From the NCBI RefSeq assembly GCF_030684315.1, contig NC_081391.1, positions 20,110,629 through 20,174,628 of the forward strand: a stretch of 64,000 bases of DNA, given 5' to 3'. The position numbers and the translations under genes are program-made. Position 1 is the first letter of the stretch; each line of letters begins with the position of its first letter. This stretch comes from Stegostoma tigrinum. Its lineage: Eukaryota. This document shows, piece after piece, positions 5,805 to 63,978 of this stretch. Below the pieces are notes generated by a model. That model had not been told where the DNA came from, ran no database searches, and worked only from the letters and a program-made list of their open reading frames with translations.

Positions 5805-8800
5805 TCAGCTGAGTGTGAGCTTGTCAAACAGGTACTCTCCCATGTCATTGTCAGGAGCTCCCAGTCTCTTCAGGTTGGTGATGTGATCTCCCAGCTTCTT
5901 GATCATCTTCACTTGCTCATCCAAGTAGTGCCTCTCCAGGAAGTCACACAGCTGGAACAGTCAGGTGCAGAGCTGGTTAGTGTGGAGGGGAACTGACAAT
6001 TGGAATTTGAAGTGCCTTCCCTTACCCCAACACCTCCAATTGATTCAGGCAAGTCGTGATACAAACACTTCTAGGTGAAGAGAAGTGAAATTTACTGAGT
6101 GGCAAGTCACTATTTTTAAATTGCACAAATTAAGCTTCAGATCCATGGAATCACCACTTGCTCTTGGAGGGGGTGGGGTGAGGAAGAATTGATCGAAGCC
6201 ACTTTTTTTCATTCATTCATTCATTCATTCATTCATGTCCGAAAGCCACAGCCCCAAGCCCAGTGATTTTCAAAAATGCAGGAGGAGCACACATTCTCCA
6301 TTTCTGTCTGAACAGCTCTACATATGGGGCTTCCAATTGTTTTTGTTCAGGGTCAGCATAAAAAGAACCAAGCTAAAAGCAAAGCAAACATTCCCTTCAC
6401 AGTTCAGCAAGCCAGATTTTTCCTTATCATCAAGGAAACTCACTTTAAAATGGGGTCTAATGTCTGGAGAGACTGTACACTCAGACAAGATGAGACCCCA
6501 TGGTGTTAGGGTAGGGCATGAAAGAGAAGACCGTCATCTATCATTTAGTCGCCGTCCAGATAAGGAGACCATTCAGGATGGCAACTTAGCTGTCATGTGA
6601 CCCTGGGGACAGATGGTTAGTTTTAAGGGAAACAGTCAAGCCTGCACTCAGCACAGAATGGAAAGGAGACCTCTCTAAAAGAGAGGATTCTATGGAGTGA
6701 GAGCTGAAGGCATGAGGGAACCCATGGAATTCTTGGGTCAGGCAATTCAAGCATAAAGGCTGAGAACGTTAAATTCAGAAATCCTTCACTTTCCAGCCTT
6801 AACCGAAAATGAGGAGGATTCAGATCAACCATGATCGGAATGGCTGAAGAAACTTGATGGGCTGAGTGGCCTACTTAAAGTGAAGGGTAGGTGAAGCAGA
6901 ATTCTCAGGCAAAAGAAACTGATGTAAAGGCTGAACAGCCAAGTAGGGGAGATAGAAGTACACTCAGTCATTTTAGGAAAACTTCCATCACTTGGGTGAA
7001 AGTGGTATAAAGAACTCACATGAGGGTCCGTGTGGCCAGAGGCGAGTTTGTGCAGATCCAGCAGACTCTGGTTCACATCCTTCTCCATCTGCAGAGCTCT
7101 CTGCATTGCCTCCAGACCATTGCCCCACTCATCCTGCTCTGGCCTCTGGAAGAAGGGTTTTGTTAGTCAGAAGCTGCTATGGGCATTTGTAGTAGAACTG
7201 AAGGCTGTGCCTTTTATGGCTAAAAACGCTTGTTCGAGGTGTTGCAGATTGTTCTATTCAAAAGGTGACAGTGGCAGAGAGGGGCATAACCTGCCACATC
7301 TTAACATAAAACACATTTGGAATCAAAGCACACAAGGCACATGTGATGTTAGTGCTGGGAGCTTGAGAGCCTGATGTGGCGTTTGAAGTCAGTCACTCTC
7401 CCCCATCCAGATGGGGAATTGCTGGTGTCAGTGTGTGATTTACTAGACTATTGTCCTTCCTAGTCAGTCCCAGCTGCAAATAAGGGAATGCCACACAACA
7501 TGTTGCATTCCCCTAAGTGACTCCAGCCCAGATGTTTCCAATGGTCAATTGTTTAAGACCACCAGGATGATAGTAAAAAAAAACAATCACTTGTCACTAC
7601 AGCCCAATGAAGGGTCAAATTCCTTTGCTATTTGAGCATTTTAGAATTCAATTGAATTCTTAAACACCACCCCAACCATGTGGATGGAAACCTTGGTTAA
7701 AAACCCACCAGGGGTCCTAAAACCATGAATTTAAGTCAAGTACATGTCATACAGAGGAGTGCTCATCTCAATCAATTGGTTCTGATCACTCCACTGGATG
7801 AAAAATCTAACAAAAACATGTCAGCCCATGCACTTGAACAGGTGCAGAATCAAAGATGCAGGATATCAAAAACACAGGCTTCTGTCAAAGTAAACCCTCA
7901 AGCCTTCCCCTTTTAAATTAAAAGGGGGTTAAAAGTCCAACCTTGATGTCCTGCAGGAGGACTCGGCCTCCACGTTTATTCTGGAATGCAATCAGTCTTG
8001 CAGCATGTTCCCGTTCCTCATGGGACTGCTCCTTGAAGAACTGAGCAAAGTGATGCAGGGCAACATCATCCCGGTCAAAGAGAGAGAACTGTGGGAGGAA
8101 GGATTGGACAGAATTCAATTAAAGTAGACCCAGACATTCTAAGAGCCAAGGACTTGGTTACTCATTCTCTACCTGGCTTCAAGTTAGAGACTTGGAATTC
8201 TAGTCAAATATATTGGCCTCAGCTAGTTTGAAATCTAGTCATGTCTGACCACATGCAAACCCCATCCTTGTTTGGGGGATCATGTTAAGAAACATGAGAT
8301 GTGAACAGTCCAGAGACAGCAGTAATTTTTTGCTTAGCATTCCACTGGCTCTACTTAATGCCACAAAGACTTGCTTCCCTCACTAGTCAGGGAAGGGGTG
8401 CAGAAGAACCATCTGAACAGCCTAACATTGACTCTTCACATGGATTAGTAATGTCAGTTCAGGTAAGGAAGATCTAGTCAGTTTTGGGGGCAGTGAAAAC
8501 AAGATTGATCAGCTAGCTCCTCACCTCAACATTCAGTTTTACCATTAAAGTAAGGAATTAGATTGCTTCTATGGAGTAGAATAATTCTTGTTGTCCAACC
8601 CACAGATTTGGCCATTTTAAATAACATGACAGTCACAAATGAGACAACACAGACTTGTATCTCAAAATTTAATTGGCAGGGGAGGCAGAGGTTAGAATTA
8701 AATCTTAACTGACTGGTCACTAACACCAGAACTATTTGCACAGCATACAGTGAATTAGTAATAACTTGGAAAAAGTACCCAAAAGATACAGCACTCACCA

Positions 8801-8900
8801 TGGAGAGGTAAACATAGGAGGAATAGAGCTCCAGGTTGATCTGCTTGTTAACAGCATCCTCACAGTCCTTGTGGTAGCTCTGACACACTCGGGAAGCCAT
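5805..8900 (-). CDS. Ferritin heavy/middle-subunit-like, locus B, intact, 173 aa
   Basis: Exons 8900-8799, 8088-7942, 7145-7020 and 5951-5805 (102/147/126/147 nt, GT-AG, phase 0). Reads [34 protein letters not shown] / [28 protein letters not shown]... / [10 protein letters not shown]... / [15 protein letters not shown]...[15 protein letters not shown]. Ferroxidase ligands are present. Confidence 0.95.
6208..6236. repeat. (TTCA)n microsatellite in intron 3 of B
   Basis: About seven TTCA units, expanded relative to three units at the homologous site in G (about 33572). Confidence 0.9.
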
Positions 8901-63457: not shown

Positions 63458-63978
63458 TCAGCTGAGTGTGAGCCTGTCAAACAGGTACTCTCCCATGCCA
63501 TTGGCAGGGGCTCCCAGTCTCTTCAGGTTGGTGATGTGATCTCCCAGCTTCTTGATCATCTTCACTTGCTCATCCAAGTAGTGCCTCTCCAGGAAGTCAC
63601 ACAGCTGGAAGAAAAAAAAATGTTAAGCATTTTCCTTCGCATTTCAAAGCTCAGCCATCCTCTAGTCCAGAGGAGACAGATGCAAATTCACTAAATCACA
63701 GGAAGTGTACAACAGCATCATAGATACACTGTTTATGGCACCATGGAATGGAGACATGAACAGGGCTATTCAAAGTGGACACCATTCGATTCGGCTCAGA
63801 TAATCCTTCCAATTTAACCCAAAACAGAAGTGCTTCAGCCTGAAAAACTCACATGAGGGTCCATGTGGCCAGAGGAGAGTTTGTGCAGATCCAGCAGACT
63901 CTGGTTCACATCCTTCTCCATCTGCAGAGCTCTCTGCATTGCCTCCAGGCCACTGCCCCATTCATCCTGCTCTGGCTT
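63458..63978 (-). CDS. Ferritin locus L, exons 3-4 (5' part outside the window, status unknown)
   Basis: Exon 3 at 63978-63853 ([10 protein letters not shown]...LSSGHMDPH) and exon 4 at 63604-63458 are both open. Intron 3 and the 3' flank match locus F. Confidence 0.8.

Follow-up and report, generated by a model that had tools for sequence, protein, structure and literature searches.

Introduction

How do the coding exons of a tandem gene family remain almost alike while the introns between them can no longer be aligned? This question is raised by a 64-kb stretch of the Stegostoma tigrinum genome (C50:20,110,629-20,174,628; genome size 3.2 Gb), referred to here as the window, in which a ferritin gene on the minus strand recurs at 12 loci, A to L. 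An earlier note on this DNA had proposed recurrent conversion or crossover confined to exons, with conversion templated by complementary DNA (cDNA) as an alternative. The first of these proposals is upheld by a plateau of synonymous divergence, by alleles imported into sister copies, by a patch that pseudogenes share with the array majority, by exon distances that do not correlate with one another, and by switches of gene type at exons. The reading that we favor, with a probability of about 0.83, is that recurrent ectopic gene conversion, from DNA to DNA, maintains the likeness of the exons, accompanied by occasional exon-anchored crossovers.

A Ferritin Array Built from Higher-Order Repeats

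When the window is compared with itself, many blocks of 110-180 nt recur at 90-98% identity, and a single block of 20 kb recurs at 98.5%. The former correspond to the ferritin gene's four coding exons (102, 147, 126, and 147 nt). Copies B, C, E, G, I, K, and L are intact, H is frameshifted, F lacks exons 1-2, D and J consist of exon 4 only, and A is decayed (Table 1). The array was sampled over C50 19.91-21.17 Mb and 21.45-21.62 Mb, the intervening 275 kb (21.17-21.45 Mb) lying outside the sample, and this portion of C50 holds at least 199 array loci, 163 of them with four exons and 101 intact, with a few divergent ferritins at the end.

Array and single-copy ferritins have equal exon lengths, the same intron positions, and GT-AG borders across four exons and three introns. 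The family fits ferritins of the vertebrate H/M type. The Pfam model Ferritin PF00210 recognizes exons 2 and 3 of copy B above its cut-off, exons 1 and 4 alone giving no match. Residues E24, Y31, E58, E59, E104, and Q138 are present in all 101 intact copies and H62 in 100 of them, as they are in two single-copy genes; we take these seven to be the ferroxidase-centre residues. Spliced joins at the copy B junctions are found in contigs of run X7, which carry no information on level or tissue.

Around the window, seven gene types (G, H, C, D, E, F, A) form a unit of ~44 kb that is repeated in tandem, with 42.3-44.5 kb between units in four of five spacings. The 20-kb block, whose similarity includes spacers and introns, recurs as part of this ~44-kb unit, and C/I, D/J, E/K, and F/L are therefore whole-gene duplicates. 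Since the unit itself is repeated in tandem, most of the similarity between neighbors is due to whole-block duplication, and the 11 copies of the earlier note amount to seven lineages. Most copies originate through in-register duplication of the seven-gene unit. Tandem Repeats Finder returned only three trivial arrays in the window.

Similar Exons between Dissimilar Introns

The intron-3 lengths given previously are reproduced (B 1068, G 1062, C/I 421, E/K 419, F 247, L 248, and H 141 nt), and the intron-3 classes cannot be aligned, as no local alignment between classes is better than those of 20 shuffles. Near-identity of exon 4 holds for the nine non-decayed copies (95.9-99.3% among B, C, E, F, G, H, I, K, and L) but not for D and J (89-92%). 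These two lack exons 1-3 and are decayed fragments, and their intron 3, formerly regarded as another type, is a remnant of the intron 3 of the A-type pseudogenes (94%). The description of introns and flanks as unrelated modules is correct across intron-3 classes and fails elsewhere: shared types align at 83-92%, and the 120-220 nt upstream of the ATG align at ~80% among A, C, E, G, and L.

A drop in identity exactly at the splice junctions had been put forward as a check. Where introns are non-homologous, the copies mostly share 92-99% identity at the exon ends, and this reaches the random level, ~25-30%, within 6-12 nt of the splice sites, so that the drop is not exact; a few positions near the splice sites exceed the identity level seen against single-copy genes. 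At the 3′ end, identity drops 12 nt (the last four codons) before the end of the reading frame, and the 3′ untranslated region (UTR) is unrelated. The edge effect within exons is weak, with a third-position difference of 0.12 at ≤12 nt from the edge versus 0.03-0.08 inside, and is confounded by the first and last codons. When it was checked, synonymous divergence (dS) comparable to intron divergence, with congruent trees across segments, was not found.

Evidence for Exchange between Copies

Because single-linkage typing of introns chained some classes, the later tests used pairwise identities; similarly, intact pairs replaced the mates of a palindrome, in which indels upset the ungapped exon comparison in five of 20 pairs. 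The synonymous difference (pS) is 0.108 in the 3,992 of 5,050 intact-copy pairs without intron homology, versus 0.52-0.73 between three single-copy ferritins and the array. In young pairs pS follows the intron difference (0.018 at 0.014; 0.024 at 0.023) and then reaches a plateau of 0.08-0.13, at which it still stands in pairs whose alignable introns differ by 14-21%. Across 38 non-overlapping sister pairs, synonymous sites have changed more often than introns (98/4092, 2.4%, versus 1152/74823, 1.5%; p=6e-5). These exon differences clump by exon (p=0.0005), and 142 of 248 are alleles each found in at least two unrelated copies, against 26% under a null whose rough mutation model weakens the comparison.

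Further evidence comes from copies that no longer encode a protein. At exon-4 positions 7-99, 20 of 22 A/D-type pseudogenes depart from the array majority at 0-2 of 93 sites, while 15-26% of sites differ elsewhere, and A/D-type sublineages that are 11% apart in introns 1-2 both match the patch perfectly. We infer that this patch is a conversion tract. It shares ground with a 72-nt run that is among the array's two longest stretches of low variation, as would be expected if perfect match feeds conversion. An exon-4 DNA element common to all ferritins was considered and rejected, because a second ferritin array on C50 and the single-copy genes depart from the patch at 7-11 of 21 synonymous sites. 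Moreover, among 43 lineages, the distance matrices of five of the six exon pairs are uncorrelated (Mantel rho ≤0.06), and linkage, measured as r2, is at background past 10 nt.

These observations bear on a reading in which old paralogs would exchange nothing, their exons being held by purifying selection on amino acids and codons in a birth-and-death process while introns drift. Selection is apparent in the seven catalytic-site residues kept in 100-101 of the 101 intact copies and in a ratio of nonsynonymous to synonymous difference (pN/pS) of ~0.3, and this reading would also accommodate private synonymous changes below the intron rate and a majority sequence that is near-static at synonymous sites, both across species and relative to retrocopies. 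However, synonymous sites in sister copies change faster than introns, mostly to shared alleles, and the same sites are near saturation in other ferritins. In addition, the perfect patch sits in frameshifted pseudogenes beyond the reach of selection, and neither the intron switches described below nor the uncorrelated exon distances are explained by selection. As a sole cause, purifying selection is largely refuted by the pseudogene patch and the sister-pair test, and we consider it very improbable.

Introns That Change Partner

The mosaic structure attributed to E and K is borne out: intron 2 (88%) and intron 3 (86%) are C-like, the 3′ flank is B/G-like (88-92%), and intron 1 aligns to no other type in the window. 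Copy B is H-type up to the acceptor of exon 3 and G-type from the exon-3 donor onward and, its neighbors being as expected, points to a deletion crossover in exon 3 between an H gene and the G gene next to it. Double switches of partner, around introns, are seen in four copies outside the window. One of these copies, at C50:21,536,002, is of local type except for its intron 2, which is C-type (95%), the sampled C-type genes lying 1.2-1.5 Mb away on the opposite strand; another, at C50:20,915,074, carries an H-type intron 3 (96%), and those at C50:20,906,223 and 20,888,635 have introns from other local types. Of 15 switches inspected, 12 fall in an exon or within ~15 nt of one and one within ~25 nt, while two are not bounded by exons. 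The claim that exchange is confined to exons needs slight relaxing: it is anchored in exons, but a whole intron can be carried along and some breakpoints are non-exonic.

Transplanted introns also speak against cDNA-templated conversion, in which reverse transcripts of an abundant mRNA would overwrite the genomic exons, as cDNA cannot supply introns. Donor cDNA does appear to have existed in the germ line. Four intronless ferritin pseudogenes (L143 on C11, L144 on C5, and L147 and L148 on C2) are all closest to the array type (89, 82, 70, and 92%, respectively) and not to single-copy genes, which implies repeated reverse transcription of array mRNA in the germ line over a long time, and makes a cDNA template possible. 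Nevertheless, no intron has been lost in 536 cases, the shortest measuring 96 nt. The 3′ UTRs have not been homogenized, with 22-35% identity past about +10, the random level, and a poly(A) signal 57-176 nt downstream in 78 of 101 copies. A 3′-to-5′ gradient is likewise missing, the differences being 4.0, 7.5, 4.3, and 4.3% in exons 1-4. A minor contribution of cDNA may exist; as the explanation of the array, it is the least probable of those considered.

Comparison across Species and a Seemingly Static Majority

Cross-species differences are those listed in the comparison and concern near-fixed variants only, because variants known at 25-30% went undetected in a same-species control. C-type and H-type introns can be aligned with contigs of organism B at 12-17% difference, so that these intron types predate the split from organism B. 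This result bears on the proposal that the array is young (synonymous age ~0.1) and that its introns have been rapidly replaced through insertions and deletions, or that it has been mixed by assembly or polishing. The introns do vary widely in length and carry repeats, and collapsed or polished arrays can mix copies; but the intron types are older than the split, pairs with alignable introns that are 14-21% apart keep the plateau pS, independent contigs of organisms A, B, and C also have near-identical exons with differing flanks, and sister copies show graded differences rather than identity. Youth or artefact is thus a very improbable source of the pattern.

Old as these intron types are, 99 of the 101 intact copies, drawn from 20 intron-3 classes, have the same derived allele at exon-4 position 102, a point in favor of exchange between types. 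The other allele makes up 81-100% of depth in organism B and 97-100% in organism C, and is also found in the D/A pseudogenes and in two single-copy ferritins.

The majority sequence itself appears to have moved little. At ~43 synonymous sites of exons 3-4 no majority difference from organism B is present, against a neutral-coalescent expectation of 0.11-0.16 per site (P 0.006-0.0005), and orthologous non-coding DNA differs by 8-17%. Similarly, the two youngest retrocopies differ from the majority about as much at 0-fold as at 4-fold degenerate sites (7.8 vs 6.8%; 6.2 vs 6.9%), the 4-fold differences amounting to 6/88 where 15-19% would be expected (P 0.015-0.001), while the two older ones have a synonymous excess (4-fold 0.19 and 0.36 vs 0-fold 0.13 and 0.19). 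These tests draw on a small number of sites, contig-level data and a simple model. They indicate that a force beyond unbiased conversion may act on the majority sequence; biased conversion, codon selection or a star-like history after expansion could explain the pattern. At non-CpG sites, third-position GC content (GC3) is 76% versus 52-66%, and GC-to-AT variants are rarer than the reverse, a bias that is not significant (p=0.065). It is conceivable, although unlikely, that the array works as a self-correcting consensus, with conversion among ~200 copies biased toward the majority (or GC) allele. If so, even the synonymous sites of the family sequence would have changed hardly at all over tens of millions of years, despite the turnover of single copies and the movement of introns as cassettes.

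Several results weigh against recurrent ectopic conversion as set out here. Among the differences listed, only one near-fixed site relative to organism B occurs in ~270 nt of exons 3-4, and none of them is synonymous, although ~5-7 synonymous ones would be expected under neutral turnover. In sister pairs, private synonymous changes (41/4092, 1.0%) are fewer than the intron rate would give (p=0.005), which fits erasure by conversion but also codon selection. Distances in exon 1 correlate with those in exon 4 (rho 0.31, p=0.002). The screen from which the 15 switches were chosen by hand favors switches near exons, and the breakpoints of two F-G deletions lie outside exons, in intron 2 and in spacer DNA. 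Finally, all junctions depend on one assembly, and the exons (102-147 nt) do not reach the ~200 bp that PMC3924818 quotes for efficient conversion.

A Proposed Model of Exon-Anchored Exchange

The DNA-to-DNA exchange that we favor could operate as follows. Protein-level selection, probably for bulk germ-line ferritin, would keep the 102-147-nt exons similar, while introns and UTRs drift beyond the ability to pair. The exons would then be the sole homology between old paralogs, so that strand exchange would begin and end within them, scrambling synonymous alleles across all types and holding the synonymous difference near 0.1. Exchange anchored in two adjacent exons would copy the intervening intron, and a crossover in a single exon would fuse two types, as may have happened in copy B. 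In-register unequal exchange would separately amplify whole seven-gene units. Dead copies would leave the pool by drift, except where a long perfect match survives.

Relation to Known Systems

Ferritin clusters of this size have been reported in the Greenland shark. The available text of that preprint (10.1101/2024.09.09.611499) counts 155 FTL and 179 FTH1 copies, the largest cluster holding 222, and calls the clusters ancient, common to the white shark and ovary-expressed. By description, the present case resembles them in its very many copies (at least 199 loci and a second array). The terms ‘gene conversion’ and ‘concerted’ are absent from its main text, insofar as this was available, and exon homogenization and intron transplanting, seen here, are not described in that portion. 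Our literature search, which was without most subscription journals, returned no description of exon-restricted homogenization in ferritin arrays, and on ferritin gene conversion or concerted evolution it returned nothing for fish or sharks.

The closest parallel is the exon-restricted concerted evolution of ruminant lysozymes, cited here second-hand and from partial accounts: in both, a tandem family coding for a bulk-expressed protein has exons that convert and introns and flanks that diverge. The ferritin array differs from what is given there in having ~200 copies, 13-23 intron classes and introns moving between copies up to 0.5-1.5 Mb apart, and in lying within higher-order repeats and within an inverted duplication of large size. 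Homogenization of coding sequence favored by dosage has been reported for yeast ribosomal-protein duplicates (PMC3924837) and Leishmania beta-tubulins (PMC1533823), and concerted evolution of coding regions for the Argiope MaSp silk genes (PMC9779670). As far as the accessible sections of these papers go, coding sequence is converted ectopically beside divergent or unalignable non-coding flanks, as in the ferritins; those cases involve two or a few genes whose coding homology is long and uninterrupted, whereas the ferritin exons are islands of 102-147 nt. According to PMC3924818, the efficient conversion segment is ~200 bp in yeast and rodents. The red and green opsins, so far as partial sources describe them, are the inverse case, in which introns convert and one exon is spared. 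The available parts of PMC3141428 and PMC2720389 offer general support only.

On these partly consulted sources, exon-restricted conversion is a known process and a gene cluster of this kind is already in print; scale, sub-200-bp homology and transplanted introns set this case apart. The array is a natural experiment on ectopic recombination in a vertebrate, with hundreds of 102-147-nt islands still exchanging between unalignable flanks. Dead copies inside it separate conversion from selection, and minimum homology, tract length, the bias of germ-line conversion and the idea of dosage selection become measurable at one locus. In addition, the copies seem young although their introns are older than a species split, so that for the reported shark ferritin expansions one would be misled by copy counts and by the trees and dS dates drawn from coding sequence.

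Features of the Window and Its Surroundings

Table 1. Ferritin copies and associated features, in window coordinates.
Feature	Position	Strand	Remarks
Copy A, exons 1 (1090-1191) and 2 (215-361)	215..1191	-	Decayed pseudogene type; exons 3-4 just before window; stop in exon 2, splice sites lost, ~15% from array majority
Copy B, intact	5805..8900	-	Exon 1 8799-8900, exon 2 7942-8088, exon 3 7020-7145, exon 4 5805-5951; chimera of H-type upstream region, intron 1 and intron 2 with G-type intron 3 and 3′ flank, switch in exon 3
Higher-order repeat block (C, D, E, F)	9862..29953		Duplicated at 43902-63998, 98.5% identity
Copy C, intact	12923..15243	-	Introns 880/498/421
Copy D	19807..20265	-	Exon 4 only, 2-nt deletion at start; A-type intron 3 remnant cut by repeat
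Copy D exon-4 patch (positions 7-99)	19855..19947	-	0/93 vs array majority; rest of exon 13/51 different
Copy E, intact	24440..26673	-	Own intron 1, C-like introns 2-3, G-like 3′ flank; switch at exon 4
Copy F	29414..29933	-	Exons 3-4, intron 3 of 247 nt; exons 1-2 deleted
Exon-4 position 102 in copy F	29459	-	Site of allele derived in 99/101 intact copies
Two deletion junctions	30160..30940	.	~4.8 and ~5.7 kb lost vs intact unit
Copy G, intact	33181..36147	-	Introns 1212/171/1062
Copy H	40201..42355	-	Introns 720/771/141; 1-nt insertion in exon 2 shifts frame
Copy I, intact	46963..49280	-	Duplicate of C
Copy J	53831..53977	-	Exon 4 only; duplicate of D; patch 0/93 vs majority
Copy K, intact	58470..60707	-	Duplicate of E
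Copy L, exons 3-4	63458..63978	-	F-type; exons 1-2 past window end; gene intact

The 148-nt exon 2 of copy H (41386-41533) recurs in H-type copies of neighboring units (C50:20,196,661; 20,241,055; 20,283,349), and the dead copy has therefore been amplified along with the unit. A repeat of ~400 nt, which presumably derives from the 3′ end of a short or long interspersed nuclear element (SINE/LINE), occurs in inverted pairs at ~79% identity (window 20266-20697, 21400-21787, 54294-54724, 55427-55814, and 2689-3116), and one copy of it truncates intron 3 of D/J. Some 0.9 kb downstream of every A/D-type exon 4 lies an exon-3-like piece of ~55 nt on the opposite strand (79%; window 18809-18863 and 52833-52887).

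Rfam scans of the window and of the region upstream of copy B detected no RNA family, and in particular no RF00037, the iron-responsive element (IRE), in the window. Among 82 candidates scored in a genome search for this element, two matched, both at single-copy ferritins. Three divergent ferritin genes, one bearing an IRE, stand at the array end (C50:21,570,735-21,609,459; L082-L085, L101), and a second IRE-bearing ferritin is found at C20:18.05 Mb. The lack of an IRE match among the array copies of the window suggests a loss of iron control.

On a larger scale, the array contains an inverted duplication at C50:~20.46-20.92 Mb, with arms of ~230 kb around a centre at ~20.69 Mb, the mates sharing 92-100% identity in non-coding segments. 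A 33-kb run of N lies near the left end of the array (C50:19,953,636-19,986,628), and C216, a separate contig with many array copies on the minus strand, is either an unplaced part of the array or a second haplotype. The second tandem array on C50 (13,380,001-14,070,000; L153-L172, sampled) has one gene per ~7-8 kb. Its exons are 94-98% alike and its introns ~82% among 18 genes, the same contrast as in the main array; between the two arrays the exons are 74-83% alike, and in the four genes viewed the start of the 3′ UTR is seemingly shared.

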